This document shows positions 2,590-12,803 of a stretch of 62,711 bases of DNA, one piece after another; the first letter of the stretch is position 1, and each line of letters begins with the position of its first letter. The notes under the pieces were generated by a model, which saw only the letters and a program-made list of their open reading frames with translations, had not been told where the DNA came from and did not search any database. A program made the position numbers and the translations under genes. Source of the DNA: an uncultured Chloroflexota bacterium (GTDB lineage Bacteria; Chloroflexota; Dehalococcoidia; UBA2979); NCBI GenBank assembly GCA_913051185.1, contig CAJXBM010000004.1, forward strand, positions 1-62,711, written 5' to 3'.

Positions 2590-2874
2590 GACTTTCTCTA
2601 CTTGCCTACATATTTCTTGTAAACGGAATATACGATCCCGAAAACAGCCACCAAAATAAGTATGTCGAAAAAAGACAATCCAAGTTCCATGCTGAGAGTG
2701 TAACCAAGTTCTCACAGATGTTTCATAAATAGCTGATGCCCCACCCAGAGACTAAAGGTCGAGCTTCATCTGTCGCTACTTGAACCCTAATCAATTAATA
2801 AAAGCTCCTCAAATCGATCGCAGTCGCCAATTACCTTCAGTTTGACTTATAGTCCTACCAGAAGATGGGTTTCA

Positions 2875-4110
2875 ATGACAAAAGCACTCTCCAACCTACG
2901 TATCTGTGACTTTACTGGCCAGCTCGCTGGTGCCGGTGCTACTCGACATCTCGCAGCCTTCGGAGCAGAGGTTATTCGGATCGAAGATCCGGTAAATGAA
3001 GGGCGGTGGGACATCCTCAGGGGAAATGCTCCATTCGTGGACGAGAGGCGAGGCATTGATCTAGGTGGTGCTTTCAATAACCATAATGTGGAAAAAAAAG
3101 CCATCACCCTTAATTTGAGAACAGAAAAGGGTAAACAAATTTTAACCGAACTCATTGGTAAATCCGATGTAGTATCGGAAAATTTTTCTGCTGGTGTGAT
3201 GGACCGACTTGGCTTCGGTTATGCAGGTCTTACAGAGATAAAAGAAGATATCATCTATGTTTCTAATTCTGGATTTGGGGCGTCGGGACCATATAAACCT
3301 TTTAAAACTTGGGGACCAATAGTACAGGCAGTCAGTGGGCTCACGTTTTCTTCAGGGCTTCCGGATCAACAATCTGCTGGCTGGGGCTATTCCTTTATGG
3401 ATCACACGGGCGGCTACTACATGTGTATCGCTATACTTGCGGCATTAATCCATAGGCGACAAACTGGCAGTGGCCAATGGGTCGATCTAGCGTGTACTGA
3501 AGCGGCTGCAAGTCTTACCGGTCCAGCAATCTTGGATTGGTCAGCTAACGGCCGACCACTGAGACGAGACGGACAGCCGAATTCCAATCACAGTGATTGG
3601 CCACGTATGGCTCCGCATGGAATTTACGCCACCAATATGCCCGATACATGGATCGCATTGGCTTGCCGGAATGATGAAGATTGGACAAAACTAAGAGCTC
3701 TTATTGATGAGCCTGCTCTATACGACCAATATTTTGATGACCTGAATGGACGCATAAAAAAACAAACTGAGCTGGACAGTCATGTCAGTCAATGGATTCA
3801 GCACTATGACCAACAAGATCTGTATCAGTTGATGCTAGATCACGGCATACCTTGTGCACCGGTTCGAACACCCCAACAAAGAGTGGATCAAGACGCAAAT
3901 ACAGAGAACTGGGGGCTGTGGCCGACAGTAAAACATACACAAATGGGGAACGTTAGGGTGGACGGACTTCCCGTACATTTGTCAGAGACTGACTGGTATT
4001 TGGAGAACGGTGCTGGATGCCTCGGCGAACATAACGAAGAAATCTATGGTGAAATACTGGGTTATAGCTCTCAACAAATCAGTTCGTTCAAAAATGAGGG
4101 AGTGATTTAA
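2875..4110 (+). CDS. CaiB/BaiF family III CoA-transferase (catalytic Asp present)
   Basis: LSNLRICDFTGQLAGAGATRHLAAFGAEVIRIE, NVEKKAITLNL, DVVSENF, GYSFMDHTGG; start moved to ATG 2875. Confidence 0.9.
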   Translation: MTKALSNLRICDFTGQLAGAGATRHLAAFGAEVIRIEDPVNEGRWDILRGNAPFVDERRGIDLGGAFNNHNVEKKAITLNLRTEKGKQILTELIGKSDVVSENFSAGVMDRLGFGYAGLTEIKEDIIYVSNSGFGASGPYKPFKTWGPIVQAVSGLTFSSGLPDQQSAGWGYSFMDHTGGYYMCIAILAALIHRRQTGSGQWVDLACTEAAASLTGPAILDWSANGRPLRRDGQPNSNHSDWPRMAPHGIYATNMPDTWIALACRNDEDWTKLRALIDEPALYDQYFDDLNGRIKKQTELDSHVSQWIQHYDQQDLYQLMLDHGIPCAPVRTPQQRVDQDANTENWGLWPTVKHTQMGNVRVDGLPVHLSETDWYLENGAGCLGEHNEEIYGEILGYSSQQISSFKNEGVI

Positions 4111-5415
4111 GTGACTACTGAGATCTCCTCTGGCCCGTTATCAGGACTTAAAGTAATTGAATTTACAGATGAGATTGCCCCTTGGGCTGGAAAACTTTTG
4201 GCGGAAATGGGGGCAGACGTTATTCGAATCGAACCCATAGAAGGAAACAAAACTCGCTGGTACGAGCCATTTCTTGGCGACACACCTAACCCAGAGCAAA
4301 GCTTGTTCTTCTGGCATTACAACCTGCGCAAACGTTCAGTAGCAGTAGATATCCAGTCAGAGGAAGGGAAAAGGCTTTTCAAAAGACTCGTAGCACAGGC
4401 CGATATCCTAGTCGAAGACCAACTGCCTGGGAAAATGGCGGCTCTCGGACTTACGTATGCCAGCCTAAGCGAAGAAAACAAGTCTTTAATCCACGCCGCC
4501 GTTACTCCATTTGGACAAAGTGGACCACGAGCTGACGAGCCAGCAACAGACCTGACTCTACTCGCAGGAAGTGGCCCCGCCTGGTCTTGCGGATATGACG
4601 ATCATGAACTCCCACCTATCCGAGGAGGAGGAGGACAGGGATACCATACAGCAAGTCACTGGGCGGTTATCTCTATTCTCACAGCAGTGATCGCCCGCGA
4701 TCAAATCGGGCAAGGTCAGTTTATTGATGTAAACGCTAGCGCAGCCTCAAATGTGAGTACCGAAGGAGCTTCATACACATGGCTGGTGGCGCAGGAGACA
4801 GTCCAACGACAAACTGGCCGTCACGCCGGGGTCCGTCCGTCCAGCCCAACTCAAGTACAGGCTGCGGATGGGCGGTGGATTAATTCGGGAGTTCCGGCAC
4901 GCCAAGGAAAAGATTTTAAAAACACTTATGAGTGGCTTGAAGACGAAGGTCTACTTGAACAATTTCCGGAAGCTCCCCTACTACAAATTGGAGGCCAAAG
5001 AGAAGGGTTCCTTAATCTTGGGGCTATATCAAGTGGCGAAGATGAAGAGGGAGCAGCTATTTTTGCCGCGGGCCGAGCGGCAATGGTGTTACTCATCAAA
5101 TCATTGCCTGCATATGAATATTTTACGAAAGCTCAGGAAAGAGGTTTTCAATGTGGAATTATTTACTCGCCCGAAGAAGTGATACAGGATCCTCATTTTA
5201 TTGATCGTGGATTCCCGTTAGAGATAGAACATCCGGAATTGGGACGGTCGTTCACATATCCTGGAGTACCCTACAAATTTCTCGGGTCCCCCTGTGAAAT
5301 CAAAATGCGACCGCCATTCCTAGGTGAACACACACGCGAAGTGATGATTGATCTCCAGTATTCGAGTACTGAAATTCAAGCGATGGTTGACAGCGGAACC
5401 GTCCTAAGTACGTAG
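4111..5415 (+). CDS. CaiB/BaiF family III CoA-transferase (probable non-catalytic partner subunit)
   Basis: GPLSGLKVIEF..LLAEMGADVIRIEP, NLRKRSVAVD, PPFLGEHT; abuts the previous stop; no Asp at the catalytic position (GGQGYHTAS). Confidence 0.88.
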   Translation: MTTEISSGPLSGLKVIEFTDEIAPWAGKLLAEMGADVIRIEPIEGNKTRWYEPFLGDTPNPEQSLFFWHYNLRKRSVAVDIQSEEGKRLFKRLVAQADILVEDQLPGKMAALGLTYASLSEENKSLIHAAVTPFGQSGPRADEPATDLTLLAGSGPAWSCGYDDHELPPIRGGGGQGYHTASHWAVISILTAVIARDQIGQGQFIDVNASAASNVSTEGASYTWLVAQETVQRQTGRHAGVRPSSPTQVQAADGRWINSGVPARQGKDFKNTYEWLEDEGLLEQFPEAPLLQIGGQREGFLNLGAISSGEDEEGAAIFAAGRAAMVLLIKSLPAYEYFTKAQERGFQCGIIYSPEEVIQDPHFIDRGFPLEIEHPELGRSFTYPGVPYKFLGSPCEIKMRPPFLGEHTREVMIDLQYSSTEIQAMVDSGTVLST

Positions 5416-5472: not shown

Positions 5473-6147
5473 CTATCCATCAATACTATTTTCGGCATAC
5501 TTTGGTCGCACAAACTTAGCCCGACTCACTTCACACTCACCTCGTGCGACACAGCCCTCCACGTGATCATTGACTAATCCCATTGCCTGCATAAAAGCAT
5601 AGGCAGTAGTTGGGCCAAAAAAACGCCAACCGAGCTTCTTGAGATCAAAGGCAAGCTTGGCGGAGTGTTCAGTCTTCGAGGGGATAGGAAGTGCACGAGC
5701 ACCCGCCTTGATCGGTGATGGCTCGTACTGCCAAACAAGTTCCGCTAAAGAGCCATAGGTTTCCACAGCCTCACAGGCCTGCCGTGCGTTATTAATCGTA
5801 GCTTCAATTTTTCCGCGATGCCTAATGATACGAGCGTCATCCATAAGACGATGTACATCTTTCTCATCAAACTGAGCTATCTTTTCGAAATTAAAATCCA
5901 AAAAAACCTCCCGAAAAGCAGGTCGCTTGTCCAACACCGTCTTCCAAGAAAGCCCTGACTGAAACCCCTCGAGACAGATCTTCTCAAAAAGTCTGTATTC
6001 GTCTTCGACTGGAAATCCCCACTCCTTGTCGTGATAGTTCACAAAGCCAGCAACCCTTAGAGCCCAACTACATCGAGGTTGGCCATCATCGCCAAGTAAT
6101 AATCCCTCAGGGAGGGTTGAGGATATCGATGCTTTCAACTTAGTCAT
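5473..6147 (-). CDS. tag: DNA-3-methyladenine glycosylase I
   Basis: RCSW, YHDKEWG, LFEKICLEGFQSGLSW, IIRHRGKIEA, FFGPTTAYAFMQAMGLVNDH. Confidence 0.93.
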   Translation of the reverse strand: MTKLKASISSTLPEGLLLGDDGQPRCSWALRVAGFVNYHDKEWGFPVEDEYRLFEKICLEGFQSGLSWKTVLDKRPAFREVFLDFNFEKIAQFDEKDVHRLMDDARIIRHRGKIEATINNARQACEAVETYGSLAELVWQYEPSPIKAGARALPIPSKTEHSAKLAFDLKKLGWRFFGPTTAYAFMQAMGLVNDHVEGCVARGECEVSRAKFVRPKYAENSIDG

Positions 6148-7084
6148 GACCGACCTCTTTTGATATCGAGTCTTCTATCAGCACAAAATATCTCCCAGCT
6201 GGCTGATCGGGGTCCGGACGATAAACATATTTATTGCCGGGTACCAGTGCCTCCTCGTACAGCACCTCCTCGACATCATCAAAGGTAATTGAAACCGCAT
6301 AATTATCGGGTCCGGGCAGGTAAAATTTAACCTCTCCATCTCGATTAGAGATTGAACGATTTAGTCCGGCAATTAGCACGATGGCCCCTGACACAGGTAA
6401 TCCCTCGACATCGAGTATGACGAGAGTGGCCGTCTGAGTTGGTTTAAATCTAACTAAAAACCATTGCCTAATTGTGCCAGGTCGACCTGGCACAGTGCCG
6501 CTAGGCATGTTATCAAGAACATCTTTCTCATATCCAACTCGCTTAGGCGTAATCCAGTCAGGACCATACTTGTAGGTGAGATACTCCCCCGGTGGACTGG
6601 GCACGCTATATGATTCCCCAAGAAACTCAATGGGCGTCAAATTAGCAAAGAGCTTGATTGGAAACGGCACGCCAGGATAATGTGCGATGGTGCCTTTGAC
6701 GACTTGATAACACTGCCAGTCAATACGAATTTGGTATTTCATTATTTTGACAGCGGTATAGAGCCCATCACGATGTACTTCAACATAACAACCATTAGCT
6801 CTGAGATCCGCGACAGTCGGCTCTATCATCTCTTCAGTGAAATCATGCATTCCAATAATTGATCCCAGATCAAGATCATCATCCCACGCAATCAGCGCCT
6901 GATCTCTCACTGCACCAAGACAAGTACCCTGCCTAAGAAAAAATGCTACTTTGTGCTGATCAAATATTTTTTTGACTTCGCCTAGAAGTCTCTCAGCATC
7001 CTCTAGGTTCATAGGAGGAATAGTTCGTTCAAGATGGAGCATAAGCTCAGCATTTTCAGAATCACTCAACTGATTAGACTTCAC
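6140..7084 (-). CDS. licD: LicD-family phosphotransferase with extra C-terminal beta-rich domain
   Basis: FFLRQGTCLGAVRDQALIAWDDDLDLG (GTxLGAxR..WDxDxD) and YLTYKYGPDWITP; about 110 aa extension follows. Confidence 0.85.
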   Translation of the reverse strand: MKSNQLSDSENAELMLHLERTIPPMNLEDAERLLGEVKKIFDQHKVAFFLRQGTCLGAVRDQALIAWDDDLDLGSIIGMHDFTEEMIEPTVADLRANGCYVEVHRDGLYTAVKIMKYQIRIDWQCYQVVKGTIAHYPGVPFPIKLFANLTPIEFLGESYSVPSPPGEYLTYKYGPDWITPKRVGYEKDVLDNMPSGTVPGRPGTIRQWFLVRFKPTQTATLVILDVEGLPVSGAIVLIAGLNRSISNRDGEVKFYLPGPDNYAVSITFDDVEEVLYEEALVPGNKYVYRPDPDQPAGRYFVLIEDSISKEVGHD

Positions 7085-7099
7085 AATAATCTCCCGTTC

Positions 7100-8989
7100 T
7101 CATTCGGTTGCGGCCTGAAGAACCAAAGTTAGTGCATCAACTAACGTTCTATTTTCTGCCTGAGTACGTGATGCTATTCGTACGTACCGATCAGCTTCTG
7201 GCATGCTTTTTTTTGCACAATCCTTTATCAAAATATTGTGTTCAACATAGAGTCGTCGAGTAATGTCCAGTCCGCTAGCACTGGGATTTGTAAGTTTACA
7301 CAGTACAAAGTTGGCATCAGGCTCAAGAGGTTGAATACCCTCTGTCGACATCAGCATTTCGTACAGGGCGACACAATCTAATCGGGTTTGATTACAGCTT
7401 GCGATAAATTCTGTACGATGACGACCCACCGCATGTAGGAATTCCTCTGCCATGCCACTCACATTCCAAATAGCCAAACTACTTCGTATGTCACTAATAA
7501 ACTTGCTATCAGAACTGAGGATATATCCCAAACGAAGACCCGCTATACCAAATACCTTACTCATACTCTTAATGATGGCAAGATTAGGCTGTTCACCGAT
7601 TAAGTCTTCTAGACTTCCGTTACTACCCAAAGCCGAAAATTCTATAAATGATTCGTCAACAATCAATCGGCATTCTTCACGTCGCAGTCGTTCGGCTAGT
7701 TTCATCAGGTCTTCGGGCTGCACCGATAACGCTGTAGGATTATTCGGAGTAACAATCACCGCAGTATCTGCCTTCCATTGAACAGCAGCATGAGTGAATC
7801 CATCGATATCAAGGCCAAAAGTATCTGGATCTAGGGGGAATCGCTCGAGTTTTTCTGGCTGGACAACTTCCTCATATTCATTAAATGAGGGAGTCGGAAT
7901 AATCAGACGTTGAATAAATTGGTTTCCCAAAATTTTAATTAGTTCGGCGGCTCCGTTGGCAACAGCAAGATTATCCGGGTTGGCACCGGTCCAGTTCGCC
8001 ACCAGTCGGGCAAGTTCAGGCTGTGCAACTGGATAATTACTGACAATTTCCGGCAAATTCTTACTGAATACTTCCAACATTTCCGCGGGTGGAAAGTACA
8101 TGTTATATAAATAGGCGTGATCAATGAAGCCATACCGCCAGTAAGCACCATGTAGTTCCTGAATACGATCAAATTGCTCAGTTCGCGTTAAAAAAAGGAA
8201 CTCAGCCGCATCTAAATCTCTATGATCGTCGATCTCATACCAACGGTTTTTTGAAACATCGACCGCTACGAGCTCGCTCTTTGACTTTTCTGCGACAAAA
8301 TCACGAAGAACGCTTTCATAGTATCCATTTTGGTGGCCATCTTGAATTTCTTGTTCTAATCTCGGAACAATTTCCTCTTCCAGTAATGTTTTTCGAAATA
8401 GGTACACATTCACTGTCTTGAACAAATCAATATCTTTCGGCAATCGGTCAAGATCTTCATTCATTAGGAACTTGGTGATGCGGCGTTGCTCGTCACAGTG
8501 TATTAACGTGCCGGACAGAGCTTTGTAGTAGGGAGCTACGGCTGCACTGCTTCCCTTTTCTCTTAACAAGTCACTAATAAGATTCGAGTCAAAAATGACA
8601 TCCGCCTCAACCAAGATGATATCTTCCGTCAGATAGTCTCGCGCGTCCCAGAGCGAACGAATATTGTTTGTCGTTTCATAGTCGCACGCGTCGACGTAAG
8701 TGATCTTAATTCCCTCAAAGGAGGCGCCTAGGCGGTCGCGAATCAATGAAGCCTTATAACCCACGACTATCACTGCTTCACTCACCTGCTGTGAGCCCAG
8801 ACCGTGCAAAGCTCTTTCAATTAATGATTGACCACCAATCTCAATAAGACATTTAGGAATCCCTGCCGTCAATGGCTGAATACGATTACCTTTTCCTGCA
8901 GCCAAAATTACAGCGCGGCGAACTGCTATAGGCTGCTCTCCCTCTTTATATTCGAGTTGATGGTTCGTAGAATGCATAATTGAATCCAA
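7100..8989 (-). CDS. Fusion: LicC/PntC-like cytidylyltransferase + class I/II PLP enzyme (CobD/HisC-like, possibly a decarboxylase)
   Basis: N-half AVILAAGKGNRIQP..PKCL, TTNNIRSL, EADV, WYEIDDHRDL; C-half NGAAELI, PNNPT, LIVDESFIEF, KSMSKVFGIAGLRLGY (PLP Lys). Confidence 0.85.
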   Translation of the reverse strand: MDSIMHSTNHQLEYKEGEQPIAVRRAVILAAGKGNRIQPLTAGIPKCLIEIGGQSLIERALHGLGSQQVSEAVIVVGYKASLIRDRLGASFEGIKITYVDACDYETTNNIRSLWDARDYLTEDIILVEADVIFDSNLISDLLREKGSSAAVAPYYKALSGTLIHCDEQRRITKFLMNEDLDRLPKDIDLFKTVNVYLFRKTLLEEEIVPRLEQEIQDGHQNGYYESVLRDFVAEKSKSELVAVDVSKNRWYEIDDHRDLDAAEFLFLTRTEQFDRIQELHGAYWRYGFIDHAYLYNMYFPPAEMLEVFSKNLPEIVSNYPVAQPELARLVANWTGANPDNLAVANGAAELIKILGNQFIQRLIIPTPSFNEYEEVVQPEKLERFPLDPDTFGLDIDGFTHAAVQWKADTAVIVTPNNPTALSVQPEDLMKLAERLRREECRLIVDESFIEFSALGSNGSLEDLIGEQPNLAIIKSMSKVFGIAGLRLGYILSSDSKFISDIRSSLAIWNVSGMAEEFLHAVGRHRTEFIASCNQTRLDCVALYEMLMSTEGIQPLEPDANFVLCKLTNPSASGLDITRRLYVEHNILIKDCAKKSMPEADRYVRIASRTQAENRTLVDALTLVLQAATE

Positions 8990-8999
8990 TTCGGAGTTG

Positions 9000-10181
9000 T
9001 TAACTTCTCTGATCTAGTGGCGTAAAATAAGCGCGAAGACGATCTATGGCTTCATCGTATCTGTCGTTGCAGAAAGCTAAGCGCAAATCATGTGGAACAC
9101 CGAAATCTGTACCTGGTACGACTGCCACATGCGTCTGCTGAAGGATGTCTCTGGCCAACTCTTTGGATGATGCAAATCCATGTTCAATATTCCAGTTCTC
9201 ACACCGCAGATTCGCATAGAAACCGCCCAAGGCTGGTACAGGTTGGCAACCCGTATTCTCCAGTTGCTGAGTCGTATATTCTGCCCTTGCACGATAAACA
9301 TCTGTTAGATGTTTTGGGCTTTTCTCATCTGCGAGAGCCGCAATCATCCCGTATTGATAAGCCGGATCGGTGCACAATAACGTATGCTGCTGAATAACTC
9401 GGAGATTTGCCTGTAACTCTTCAGGCAAAATCGCAAATCCTATACGCTTTGAGTACATGCGGTAGCCCTTGGAGAAGCTATTAGTCACGATAGTGTTGTC
9501 CTTGTATTCAGGAAAGAGTTTTAAAGCTGAATGAAACTCCTCATAGAACATCGTATTGTTATAAATTTCATCATTAAGCACATATGATTTCCCCTCGACT
9601 ATCTCATAGATTGCTCTCATTTCATCAGGCGACACTATATTTCCTAACGGGTTACCTGGAGAATTAATTACCACAAGAGAGGTTTTTTCCGCAGAGTAAT
9701 TTCGTCTAAAAGAGTCCATATCAACTCTCCCCGAATCACTACTGATGTCGTAAAACTTAACTTGTGCGCCCGCTAATTTAGCACAATATAAATACAGGGC
9801 GTAATAAGGTCTTGGGATTAGTATTTCATATTCAGGTCCAGAGACTAGCTGGAAAATATTACGGAAAATCGGTGACGTCCCGGTGTTCACTATGACTTGA
9901 TCGATAGTACTATCTGCGCCATAGCGTCGGTTATAAAACTCCGAAATAGCCTGACGTAATTCTGGCAGTCCCTCCGGATATATGCGCCTTACAAAATCTC
10001 TATCATGAAGTTTTTCGACGATAGTGTCGAGCACTGGATCTGGCATCGGAAGTTCTGGAACACCTACAGTAAGCTTCAGAACATCAGCTCCCTTTGCAAT
10101 CAATTCATCAGCGAGTTCGTCGAGTACAAACATTTGAAACTCTAAATCCATTGGCATCAAGTCTCGAATAGTACGTGGCAT
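9000..10181 (-). CDS. PLP-dependent aminotransferase, class I/II (AspAT-like)
   Basis: GLPELRQAI, PYYALY, INSPGNPLG, NDEIY, NSFSKGYRM..RIGF, VVPGTDFG, LRLAF. Confidence 0.9.
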   Translation of the reverse strand: MPRTIRDLMPMDLEFQMFVLDELADELIAKGADVLKLTVGVPELPMPDPVLDTIVEKLHDRDFVRRIYPEGLPELRQAISEFYNRRYGADSTIDQVIVNTGTSPIFRNIFQLVSGPEYEILIPRPYYALYLYCAKLAGAQVKFYDISSDSGRVDMDSFRRNYSAEKTSLVVINSPGNPLGNIVSPDEMRAIYEIVEGKSYVLNDEIYNNTMFYEEFHSALKLFPEYKDNTIVTNSFSKGYRMYSKRIGFAILPEELQANLRVIQQHTLLCTDPAYQYGMIAALADEKSPKHLTDVYRARAEYTTQQLENTGCQPVPALGGFYANLRCENWNIEHGFASSKELARDILQQTHVAVVPGTDFGVPHDLRLAFCNDRYDEAIDRLRAYFTPLDQRS

Positions 10182-10518
10182 TTAGAATTCTCCTAGATTT
10201 CATTGATGATTTAACGATATTCAACCCGACAAAACTAAATCGCAGAAATTGCGCCGATCTCGTTATCCGGATCGAAAATCACAGACCACAAGTCCAAATC
10301 CAGGATCAACCTGTCTCTGAAACACAGTCAAAATGAATAACGTGAAAAATTTTAGTGACGTAACCGTAACACACCACCACAACAAATCATCATCTGATTA
10401 TGATTGATAAGCGAAAGCCTCTGGTCGAGAACTGGCTCGTTCAGACGATAAAACTGCTACATCATAGGATATTGACGTTTGGTATTATTAATAAATAATC
10501 AGATTTGACGAGGTAATT

Positions 10519-10683
10519 CTATGTGGCGCAGCAAAATAAGGGCGCACCGGTTTCATAAAGTGTTAGTGATCCCTTGGTGTATATCTCTGATAAAGCCGTC
10601 ACCTCTACTGTGCCTGTAAAATAGACGTAGCAGGCCGTCGCAACTGTCAGTGCCAAGAGTATAAATTTTTTGTACCGCATCAT
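10519..10683 (-). CDS. Small protein with N-terminal hydrophobic helix and C-terminal CC motif, hypothetical
   Basis: MMRYKKFILLALTVATACYVYF...GAPLFCCAT; directly downstream of ctaA; RBS weak. Confidence 0.4.
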   Translation of the reverse strand: MMRYKKFILLALTVATACYVYFTGTVEVTALSEIYTKGSLTLYETGAPLFCCAT

Positions 10684-10725
10684 AAAATTATAACGAATAA
10701 TCACCTGCACCAGTGGCGAATTCTG

Positions 10726-11667
10726 TTACGTGAAATTATGTGACACCTTCCTCCAGTTATATAAAGAGAAAAATACTAACAGTATCCAAAGTGTATCTGC
10801 CAAACCTAGGTGTATTATTTGAGTTTCTACTGGCGTGAGAAGGACAATATTGAATACTCCAGATAAAAACTGTAAAAAAATTACTCCGAACACCGCAAAT
10901 CCTAACGCCGATTTCTGAGCACTGGGTTCCTCTATTACTAGATACAACAATCCAATAATTGCAAACCCGCCAATAATTGCAATAAGTGGGTGAATTGCTC
11001 TCACCGACACAAGTAGTTGAGCAATTGGCGTTTCCTCCACTACTACGTGGTCAGAAAGGTAGAGTGTGTCAGCCAAAGAGTTTATGGTTCCTGTGACTGT
11101 TATAAGAATTACTATGAGCATCGCAAAAATAAGATAGCGTCGCTTCGGATTCGATTTAGCTACAAGAATTCCACCATCAGGTCTGCTTAAAAAAATAATT
11201 AGTACTAGAGATCCCAGTAGTACCAATGTATTAACCACGTGAAAGCTATCTGCAATAACTCGTCCCCAAGTCGCATTATCTTCCACCCAGCCAAATAAAA
11301 CGAGCGATGCACCCAAAAGGATTTCAACTAGCAAAATAGCCGTAGAGAAAAGAATGCTGCGCCAGACGGGGTGTTTCCTCCCAAATAAAAGGTAACCACC
11401 AATCAACAAGCCAAGATACCCGAAGCTAAGGACACTGGTTAGCATTCGATGTATGAATTCGATTGCAACATGTACATCAGCAAAGGCTGGAATTAATGTC
11501 CCATCACATTTCGGCCAGCTATCACCACAACCAGCACCGGACTCTGTGGCCTGTACTATGTCACCACTGATGATGACGGCTACTGTAAATAGGAGTATCC
11601 CCCAGAGATATATCTGAAAGTACTGAAAGGCTCTAACCGATTTACTAACTCTCGAGATTGATTCCAT
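10726..11667 (-). CDS. ctaA: Heme A synthase (COX15/CtaA)
   Basis: SGAGCGDSWPKCDG loop, IEFIHR, conserved His in SFHV, AIHP, IIHL; about 8 TM helices. Confidence 0.88.
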   Translation of the reverse strand: MESISRVSKSVRAFQYFQIYLWGILLFTVAVIISGDIVQATESGAGCGDSWPKCDGTLIPAFADVHVAIEFIHRMLTSVLSFGYLGLLIGGYLLFGRKHPVWRSILFSTAILLVEILLGASLVLFGWVEDNATWGRVIADSFHVVNTLVLLGSLVLIIFLSRPDGGILVAKSNPKRRYLIFAMLIVILITVTGTINSLADTLYLSDHVVVEETPIAQLLVSVRAIHPLIAIIGGFAIIGLLYLVIEEPSAQKSALGFAVFGVIFLQFLSGVFNIVLLTPVETQIIHLGLADTLWILLVFFSLYNWRKVSHNFT

Positions 11668-11738: not shown

Positions 11739-12803
11739 TCAGAGAGCTAACGCAGTCGAAAAATCAGGAATATTTTCCCATCTACCGGGGTTAGATCCTC
11801 GCATCAAAGCAATAACTTTAATAACTTCAGGATTTGCCAACCCATGGGGGGCTTCACCGCTCAACACGCGTAGAACGTTTTCAGCCTGCTTCCGAACGCC
11901 CTCCGATGATGAAACTGCCGAACCGGCGGCCACATGTGGAGTAATAATTAAATTATCCAAACCAAGCAGTGGATCTTCAGCATCAATTGGTTCCACTTCC
12001 GTGACGTCCAGCGCGGCCGCAAAAATTTGACCGTCAGTCAGAGCTACATGCAATGCTGCTGGATCCACCAATGGGCCACGTGCGCAATTAATAAGAATGG
12101 CAGATTCTTTCATAGATTTAAAAGCGTCAGAACTGAACATATGCTTAGTTTCAGACGTCGACGGAGCGTGTATTGTCACAAAATCAGACACTCGCAAGAG
12201 TTCATCTAACTCCACCAACTCAACGCCATACAAATCGGCCGAAGTTTGAGCCACATATGGGTCGTAGGCGATGACGCGAAACGGACCAAACCCCCGTATT
12301 CTCGTGGCAAAGGCTCGGCCAATAGCTCCGAAACCAACTATCCCAACTGTGCTGCCTGCAATCCTCTTTAACCCAGGAGCAAGATCGCGAACAGCCTGCG
12401 TCTGAGTGCTCCAACGTCCAGCCTTTACAGCGCTATCAAATTCTCGTATCAGTCTAGTGAGCGCTAGTAACTGGGCCATCGCATGGTCAGCTACCTCAGA
12501 GGTATTGACGCCCGGTGTGTTACAAGCAAGAATCCCAAGTCGAGTCGATGCTTCTAGATCAATGGAATCTACACCGACTCCCTGCCTGCTCACAATCTTT
12601 AGCTTAGGACAAGCTTCAAGAACCTCAGCATCTGTGAGTGGCAATGTACCAATAAGAGCCCCGTCAGCATCACGCAAAAGGTCGATGTAATCCTCTTTTT
12701 TTGTAGTCGCGCCAACTGCAACTTGAACGAGCTCCATACCAGCAGCTGTGAATATGCTTGGGTCAGCCAATTGCCGGCCGCCATTAAATACTTTGATTGC
12801 CAT
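11739..12803 (-). CDS. D-isomer-specific 2-hydroxyacid dehydrogenase (SerA/CtBP-like)
   Basis: GVGVDSIDL, VGIVGFGAIG, DFVTIHAP, LINCARG, AALDVTEVEP, IITPHVA. Confidence 0.92.
   Translation of the reverse strand: MAIKVFNGGRQLADPSIFTAAGMELVQVAVGATTKKEDYIDLLRDADGALIGTLPLTDAEVLEACPKLKIVSRQGVGVDSIDLEASTRLGILACNTPGVNTSEVADHAMAQLLALTRLIREFDSAVKAGRWSTQTQAVRDLAPGLKRIAGSTVGIVGFGAIGRAFATRIRGFGPFRVIAYDPYVAQTSADLYGVELVELDELLRVSDFVTIHAPSTSETKHMFSSDAFKSMKESAILINCARGPLVDPAALHVALTDGQIFAAALDVTEVEPIDAEDPLLGLDNLIITPHVAAGSAVSSSEGVRKQAENVLRVLSGEAPHGLANPEVIKVIALMRGSNPGRWENIPDFSTALAL

Follow-up and report, generated by a model that had tools for sequence, protein, structure and literature searches.

A horizontally shared three-gene cassette as a candidate kinase-free route to CDP-ethanolamine and LicD-type head-group transfer

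The 62,711-nucleotide stretch of DNA analysed here (contig CAJXBM010000004.1, in the following called the window) stems from a 1.82-Mb metagenome-assembled genome (MAG), 83% complete, of an uncultured Chloroflexota bacterium whose nearest relatives are Dehalococcoidia MAGs, part of them marine. It carries a compact cassette encoding an aminotransferase, a fusion of a nucleotidyltransferase with a CobD-like pyridoxal phosphate (PLP) enzyme, and a LicD-family phosphotransferase. We consider it likely that these proteins decarboxylate a phospho-amino acid, activate it with cytidine monophosphate (CMP) and hand the resulting phospho-amine to LicD for transfer. With less confidence, yet on balance, we favour a specific version of this scheme, which leads from 3-phosphohydroxypyruvate via O-phospho-L-serine (Ser-P) to cytidine diphosphate (CDP)-ethanolamine followed by LicD transfer, and which would need neither a kinase nor a transporter nor a C-P bond. 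The general logic of CobD-type decarboxylation, LicC/PntC-type CMP activation and LicD transfer without a kinase had been put forward in an initial annotation of the window; it agrees with the decarboxylase lineage of the PLP domain, the absence of the kinase from carrier genomes and the existence of split and alternative cassettes described below.

Architecture, conservation and spread of the cassette

The three open reading frames (ORFs) lie on the minus strand and code for the aminotransferase (9000-10181, 393 aa), a class I PLP enzyme resembling aspartate aminotransferases (AspATs), the fusion protein (7100-8989, 629 aa) and the LicD-family phosphotransferase (6140-7084, 314 aa). Their coordinates bear out the tight, co-oriented arrangement reported at the outset, with gaps of 10 nt (8990-8999) between aminotransferase and fusion and 15 nt (7085-7099) between fusion and LicD. 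The fusion may also start at an ATG at 8977 instead of the TTG at 8989, and the first gap would then measure 22 nt. AGGAG precedes the aminotransferase ATG as ribosome-binding site, as does GGGAG 7 nt ahead of the LicD GTG. All three proteins look soluble.

The order aminotransferase-fusion-LicD is kept in about 30 loci, comprising five long metagenomic contigs and approximately 25 of 28 species-representative loci, which belong to Chloroflexota, Gammaproteobacteria and Actinomycetota and have unrelated flanking genes. As the same three genes recur in the same order in all these loci, the arrangement is far beyond chance, and the co-occurrence that the initial annotation had named as a check is thereby found across phyla. 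Databases contain more than 3,500 relatives of the fusion; the top 120 are full-length, two-domain proteins of 59-98% identity from Chloroflexota, Gammaproteobacteria, Rhodothermia and Actinomycetota. Across phyla the aminotransferase is the best conserved of the three, at 74-80% identity, while LicD ranks second with 65-70% and the fusion third with 59-64%. Trees of the three genes recover identical groups on a weakly supported backbone, and the Chloroflexota are not monophyletic in them, since gammaproteobacterial and actinomycetal sequences separate the window's clade from a Tepidiformaceae clade in all three. Because the flanks differ between loci and the three gene trees agree, we regard the cassette as self-contained and horizontally shared. 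Its distribution is patchy even within the class: LicD of the cassette architecture was found in 9 of 201 genomes, and its close type in the window's own genome and one other only. Some cassette homologues are marine and come from Tara Oceans records or from MAGs of deep water.

As a sign of mobility, a phage-type integrase and insertion sequence (IS) transposases flank the cassette in loci L003 and L004. Furthermore, tRNA genes lie at most 1.5 kb from the cassette in 4 of 12 loci, a proximity that is not consistent, so that we rejected a tRNA-linked island as a description of the cassette.

Genome-wide searches covered 18 carriers of the cassette, consisting of the window's own genome and 17 others, about 10 of them being closed chromosomes.

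Family assignment of the encoded proteins

The C-terminal part of the fusion (7100-8164, minus strand, residues ~276-629) is a PLP domain of the CobD/SMUL_1544 type, which we propose to act as a phospho-amino-acid alpha-decarboxylase. It matches PF00155 over residues 321-620, and its best NCBIfam model is CobD (TIGR01140, 176.9 bits), with hisC at 133.1 bits. Among PDB sequences 6OUX ranks first (1e-37), followed by Salmonella CobD 1LC5 (1e-22), with HisC no better than 2e-20. The ranking by fold, obtained with an AlphaFold model of the fusion (pLDDT 82.6), is the same, the best match of the domain being 6OUX, the structure of the decarboxylase SMUL_1544 from Sulfurospirillum multivorans (TMt 0.76-0.83); the whole chain of the model matches PntC-AEPT. 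SMUL_1544 is the serine-phosphate decarboxylase of norcobamide synthesis and reportedly accepts both Ser-P and O-phosphothreonine (Thr-P). The PLP lysine Lys478 and Arg604, which corresponds to CobD Arg337, are invariant.

A tree was calculated from the fused domains, a split homologue, bona fide HisC of carrier genomes and cbiB-adjacent CobD-type proteins from three carriers. Fused domains and split homologue form one clade (100/100) that is sister to the cbiB-linked CobD proteins (98/93), with HisC placed outside. Judged by sequence, model and tree, the PLP domain is a member of the decarboxylase lineage rather than of the HisC-type transaminases. The expectation of the initial annotation that it is no ordinary HisC is supported by this placement beside CobD and by the carriers' own hisC genes: 17 of the 18 carriers encode, apart from the fusion, a hisC that scores above cut-off (331.8 bits in the window's own genome), on which grounds we rejected a housekeeping HisC role for the domain, which itself scores 133-135 bits with TIGR01141 against a cut-off of 276.55.

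The N-terminal part of the fusion (8180-8917, minus strand, residues ~25-270; PF12804/PF00483) is a LicC/PntC-type nucleotidyltransferase domain, with the MobA/LicC-type Pfam match covering residues 26-156. Its best PDB matches are the CTP:phosphocholine enzyme LicC (1JYK, 1.8e-11) and the CTP:2-aminoethylphosphonate PntC domain of Tde1415 (6PD1, 2.6e-11), and sugar nucleotidyltransferases all rank below. The GxG(T/S)Rx(4-8)PK signature of LicC/PntC-type cytidylyltransferases is found as G32-K-G34-N-R36...P45-K46, of which G32, G34, R36, P45 and K46 show no variation among 33 sequences. The catalytic Arg36 and Lys46 align with Arg15 and Lys25 of Tde-PntC (PMC6697681). Moreover, Glu128 falls on Glu104 of PntC, the residue that contacts the amine and in whose place LicC is reported to have Asp (PMC6697681), and this glutamate may be a hint at a phospho-amine substrate.

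The LicD protein consists of an N-terminal catalytic domain with FKRP-like fold (6470-7084, minus strand, residues 1 to ~205; PF04991) and a C-terminal beta-sandwich resembling transthyretin and carboxypeptidase regulatory domains (6140-6442 including the stop codon, minus strand, residues ~215-305). The PF04991 match scores 44 bits, above the gathering cut-off of 22.6, with residues 43-73 only being aligned, and the homologues carry the PF04991 annotation throughout. FKRP is the sole PDB sequence match, and its catalytic domain is the best fold match of the AlphaFold2 model (E 1.7e-8). The metal motif W67-D68-D69-D70-L-D72, invariant in 32 homologues, aligns with 'WDYDVD' of FKRP, and the protein thus combines the DxD-type metal motif with the nucleotidyltransferase-like fold of the LicD family. 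From sequence and model, it is a putative phospho-alcohol transferase with a CDP conjugate as donor and a hydroxyl group as acceptor. The beta-sandwich, annotated as PF13620 on homologues and all-beta in the model, is conserved in all 32 aligned LicD homologues and matches the transthyretin-like domains of carboxypeptidases D and N as well as the NTE domain of SusC.

The aminotransferase matches PF00155 (2.7e-51), and its top NCBIfam scores are far under the equivalog cut-offs (195.8 versus 550 bits). The AspATs of T. maritima and T. thermophilus are its best PDB matches, and PLP Lys238, Asp204, Tyr207, Asn177 and the alpha-carboxylate Arg367 are retained. Ser103 in the motif 'GTSP' replaces the distal-carboxylate lysine of subgroup Ib AspATs ('GAKQ' in T. 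maritima), and with this lysine absent and a score below the equivalog level the enzyme falls outside subgroup Ib. Its list of homologues is filled by cassette members of 74-95% identity and provides no informative distant context. One of them bears the JGI name '(5-formylfuran-3-yl)methyl phosphate transaminase' (MfnC type), an automatic label only, which hints at phosphate-bearing substrates.

Two low-GC Dehalococcoidia MAGs carry the fusion and LicD without the aminotransferase (L010:6931-10802 and L011), and neither MAG contains an aminotransferase homologue at E <= 1e-40. L010 has in its stead roughly 1 kb of AT-rich DNA in which no ORF reaches 100 aa. The aminotransferase is thus dispensable in close relatives and more likely supplies a common metabolite such as Ser-P than an exotic one: since fusion and LicD exist without it, their amino-acid substrate should come from general metabolism, as Ser-P would.

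Further variants concern the partner of the fusion and the fusion itself. In a Gemmatimonadota MAG (L033:4428-7045) a 47%-identical fusion gene overlaps by 4 bp with a gene for a CDP-alcohol phosphatidyltransferase, an S-adenosylmethionine (SAM) methyltransferase gene adjoins on the other strand, and neither aminotransferase nor LicD is present. That two unrelated CDP-alcohol-consuming families serve as alternative partners of the fusion is the strongest context evidence for a CDP-alcohol as its product. Other Dehalococcoidia encode more distant LicD paralogues (37-47% identity) with the two-domain architecture of the cassette LicD, two of which have just a stand-alone nucleotidyltransferase gene ahead of them and three of which stand alone. 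An unfused form, which likewise supports a CDP-alcohol product, was found in another Dehalococcoidia genome (L049:8442-11285), where a CobD-like PLP gene (10185-11285, minus strand, 366 aa) and a nucleotidyltransferase gene (9361-10176, minus strand, 271 aa) lie divergent to a LicD paralogue (8442-9332, plus strand).

Proposed route and alternative readings

In the route that we favour, the AspAT-like aminotransferase would turn 3-phosphohydroxypyruvate into Ser-P. 3-Phosphohydroxypyruvate is the only phosphorylated 2-oxo acid known to be universal, and as it is an isostere of 2-oxoglutarate, an AspAT-type enzyme would be a natural catalyst for making Ser-P. The bifunctional fusion would then generate CDP-ethanolamine from Ser-P and cytidine triphosphate (CTP). 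Cytidylylation might come first to give CDP-serine, the CMP conjugate then being decarboxylated, which is the order that the enzyme FrbH reportedly follows. By analogy with FrbH, the order of steps may therefore be the reverse of the one assumed in the initial annotation. In the other order, Ser-P would first be decarboxylated to phosphoethanolamine as by SMUL_1544 and by Cj1436, which converts serine phosphate into ethanolamine phosphate by decarboxylation (PMC12409886), and would subsequently be cytidylylated as by LicC and PntC. LicD would finally link the phosphoethanolamine of CDP-ethanolamine to a hydroxyl group on the sugar of a glycolipid or glycan that is made elsewhere, releasing CMP. 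The surface polymer originally suggested as acceptor is a guess, and a glycolipid could serve equally well.

FrbH from the FR-900098 pathway of Streptomyces rubellomurinus is the one characterised enzyme sharing the domain architecture of the fusion, with a cytidylyltransferase of the PF12804 type at the N-terminus and a CobD-like PLP decarboxylase at the C-terminus, a likeness drawn from its description (PMC6697681). Its substrate is likewise a small alpha-amino acid with a terminal phosphorus group, since it cytidylylates L-2-amino-4-phosphonobutyrate, the CH2-for-O isostere of Ser-P (PMC6697681). FrbH is, however, part of a gene cluster for a phosphonate antibiotic that depends on ppm, and its product undergoes further tailoring instead of LicD transfer. 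The cassette differs by its dedicated aminotransferase, its LicD transferase and the lack of a phosphoenolpyruvate (PEP) mutase in the genome; the domain order of FrbH is preserved, whereas a ppm-dependent pathway to a phosphonate substrate is missing from the 18 carriers. The Lic pathway (LicA kinase, LicB permease, LicC, LicD) resembles the cassette in the LicC-type CTP activation of a phospho-amine followed by LicD-type transfer. In the cassette there is neither a kinase nor an uptake step, the phospho-amine would be made de novo by PLP enzymes, and LicD has the extra C-terminal beta-sandwich.

Tde1415 of Treponema denticola (PntC-AEPT; 6PD1/6PD2) likewise joins a nucleotidyltransferase to a PLP enzyme, is the best whole-chain fold match and has LicD-like genes in its neighbourhood (PMC6697681). 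Its PLP domain is a class V transaminase (AEPT, PF00266; PMC8942020) and it depends on PEP mutase and phosphonopyruvate decarboxylase, whereas the fusion has a class I/II PF00155 domain and occurs in carriers without PEP mutase, which sets it apart from the PntC-AEPT family. SMUL_1544, Cj1436 and CobD, the nearest sequence and fold relatives of the PLP domain, are single-domain enzymes whose products enter cobamides or capsule amides and not a CDP-activated donor. A precedent for the transfer step is Mf1, a LicD-family enzyme of Mycoplasma fermentans that in vitro attaches phosphocholine or phosphoethanolamine, supplied by the CDP donor, to glucosyl-diacylglycerol (PMC11982090). With the Mf1 model the cassette LicD has a match at its N-terminus that spans 42 residues only, with 53 bits against a cut-off of 225. 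CDP-ethanolamine is moreover an intermediate of the eukaryotic Kennedy pathway, which differs in that it starts from free ethanolamine and a kinase and employs an unrelated cytidylyltransferase.

The term kinase-free holds at the genome level. A choline/ethanolamine kinase was found in 1 of 18 carriers, leaving 17 without it, and the absence of PEP mutase and choline kinase, first noted for the window alone, extends to the whole of its own 1.82-Mb, 83%-complete genome. Phosphatidylserine decarboxylase (Psd, PF02666) was not found in any of the 13 Chloroflexota carriers, about 10 of which are closed chromosomes, nor in the Actinomycetota carrier (G000-G012 and G014), and is present in the gammaproteobacterial carriers. 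The missing Psd is compatible with the cassette supplying the ethanolamine-phosphate head group in Chloroflexota and proves nothing; a role of the cassette as replacement for Pss/Psd-type phosphatidylethanolamine synthesis is suggestive only. We extend the route only tentatively to a wider picture, in which a mobile, multi-phylum pathway would make CDP-ethanolamine de novo via CDP-serine on an FrbH-type enzyme as a kinase-free prokaryotic counterpart of the Kennedy pathway, and in which LicD of the 13 Psd-less Chloroflexota carriers would build a phosphoethanolamine glycolipid or envelope glycan, the pathway being their sole source of ethanolamine-phosphate head groups.

Several points weigh against the route via Ser-P. 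The CobD-like domain stays under the CobD equivalog cut-off (176.9 versus 290.55 bits), and the position of CobD Arg323 is taken by Lys589 in the fusion, an Arg-to-Lys exchange at a phosphate-binding position that is compatible with either order of steps. Cj1437, a member of the same superfamily, is a transaminase and not a decarboxylase (PMC12409886). The sequence of the aminotransferase reveals no phosphate pocket and does not indicate its substrate. Canonical SerC is present in the three gammaproteobacterial carriers, where a second Ser-P-forming enzyme looks redundant, and canonical SerC_1 was not found in the Chloroflexota carriers; a plain replacement of SerC by the aminotransferase consequently does not account for all carriers. 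The cassette brings along neither a glycosyltransferase nor a flippase or lipid gene, and was never located in a polysaccharide locus. Finally, we infer from families and context which amino acid is used, which of its two steps the fusion performs first, what serves as acceptor and, more generally, all substrates and products.

Among the alternatives, the one that survives best, albeit as a rather unlikely one, keeps the same logic and changes the amino acid, which could be Thr-P, O-phosphohomoserine or 4-phosphohydroxythreonine, with CDP-1-aminopropan-2-ol resulting from the first and CDP-3-aminopropanol from the second, and the head group again being installed by LicD. CobD proper uses Thr-P, the PLP domain is sister to the cbiB-linked CobD proteins, and its sequence does not fix the side chain; SMUL_1544 reportedly takes both Ser-P and Thr-P. 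On the other hand, the presence of an aminotransferase in the cassette implies a phosphorylated 2-oxo acid as precursor, of which only 3-phosphohydroxypyruvate is universal. Thr-P and homoserine phosphate are made by kinases, none of which travels with the cassette, and the PdxB route to 4-phosphohydroxythreonine is known only from some Proteobacteria. The best structural relative is, moreover, the Ser-P enzyme SMUL_1544.

Somewhat less probable still is that the PLP domain works as a Cj1437-like transaminase that converts dihydroxyacetone phosphate into serinol phosphate, the product of the fusion then being CDP-serinol or a CDP-amino-polyol and the AspAT-like enzyme recycling the amino donor or acting elsewhere. 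Serinol phosphate is a constituent of a Mycoplasma glycolipid in whose synthesis a LicD-family enzyme takes part. The close relatives Cj1437 and Cj1436 indeed differ in being a transaminase and a decarboxylase on small phosphate esters (PMC12409886), and the score below the CobD cut-off would suit this reading as well. Sequence, fold and tree nevertheless group the domain with SMUL_1544 and CobD and not with the HisC-type transaminases, and two aminotransferases in a three-gene cassette would lack an obvious logic.

We regard it as improbable that the nucleotidyltransferase domain activates a sugar 1-phosphate or polyol phosphate for transfer by LicD, with the PLP enzymes making an amino sugar. 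AglF, archaeal GlmU, MurU and inositol-1-phosphate cytidylyltransferase do appear among the weaker NCBIfam matches of the domain, and FKRP, the fold relative of LicD, uses CDP-ribitol. The best matches of the domain are, however, the phospho-amine and phosphonate enzymes LicC and PntC, and its fused partner is of the CobD type, which handles small phospho-amino acids, and not of the DegT or sugar aminotransferase type.

A phosphonate route that bypasses phosphonopyruvate decarboxylase, leading from the PEP mutase product via phosphonoalanine to CMP-2-aminoethylphosphonate and LicD, is close to refuted. For PalB-type AspAT homologues the formation of phosphonoalanine has been suggested (PMC8942020), phosphonoglycan clusters frequently contain PntC domains and LicD-like genes (PMC6697681), and the fusion has PntC-AEPT as its whole-chain fold match. 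Yet no PEP mutase (TIGR02320) above cut-off was found in any of the 18 carriers, the best score being 142 bits versus 319.55, and no ppm gene adjoins the cassette in any locus. Where the frame is readable, the best matches to the PEP mutase model show the EDQ...KRCGH motif of methylisocitrate lyases and lack the EDKxxxxxNS that marks PEP mutases (motif from PMC6697681). With the PEP mutase search negative we rejected this route, and the option of the initial annotation that phosphonoalanine is decarboxylated to 2-aminoethylphosphonate (AEP) falls with it.

The least probable reading, a cobamide nucleotide-loop enzyme made of a CobY-like guanylyltransferase and CobD with unrelated neighbours, could appeal to the CobD-like PLP domain and to CobY, a member of the same Pfam family PF12804, but it was rejected as no more than three of the 18 carriers have cbiB, nowhere beside the cassette and each with a cbiB-linked CobD of its own, while the fusion scores under the CobD (TIGR01140) cut-off, shows no genomic link to cobamide loop assembly, is nearest to LicC and PntC in its nucleotidyltransferase domain and is accompanied by LicD and the aminotransferase in approximately 25 of the 28 species-representative loci.

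Full-text literature searches for the gene combination returned no earlier description of the cassette. Its parts are known families, and its logic joins two known schemes, those of Lic and FrbH. Phosphoethanolamine and phosphocholine decorations affect the contact of the envelope with phages, antimicrobial peptides and hosts, and the known bacterial routes to such groups are amine scavenging (Lic), use of the head group of phosphatidylethanolamine (EptA type) and the C-P bond pathway to AEP. If the route via Ser-P is true, it would be a fourth, self-sufficient one that draws its activated donor from central carbon metabolism. It would furthermore show FrbH-type chemistry, so far part of a rare antibiotic pathway, at work on ordinary phosphate esters, and give a function to hundreds to thousands of proteins annotated as 'aminotransferase class I/II' or 'hypothetical/LicD' in uncultured bacteria.

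Neighbouring genes

The tag gene for 3-methyladenine glycosylase (5473-6147) is co-oriented with the cassette, overlaps the LicD stop by 8 nt and travels with the cassette in the closest relatives only. Upstream of the aminotransferase, a non-coding block at about 10215-10385 is conserved above its flanks in the window, L007 and L009, which all belong to the window's own clade. As neither this block nor the aminotransferase leader has an Rfam match, no motif is common to the block and the leaders of other lineages and conservation is confined to the clade, a riboswitch or leader RNA of wider occurrence was rejected; the block may serve as promoter or operator or represent a leader particular to the lineage. 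A 54-codon ORF (MMRYKKFILLALTVATACYVYF...; 10519-10683, minus strand) is located immediately downstream of a COX15/CtaA-like gene and is kept in L007 and L009. Its product resembles a small peptide of hydrophobic or lipoprotein-like character.

A short D-2-hydroxyacid dehydrogenase (11739-12803, minus strand, 354 aa) is encoded two genes upstream of the cassette in the same orientation; its top NCBIfam match is phosphoglycerate dehydrogenase (259 bits versus a cut-off of 454). It could supply 3-phosphohydroxypyruvate, and its synteny with the cassette is confined to the window's own clade. On the plus strand, the window further contains two tandem family III CoA-transferase paralogues (2842-5415) and an enoyl-CoA hydratase (1531-2391), which are unrelated to the cassette.

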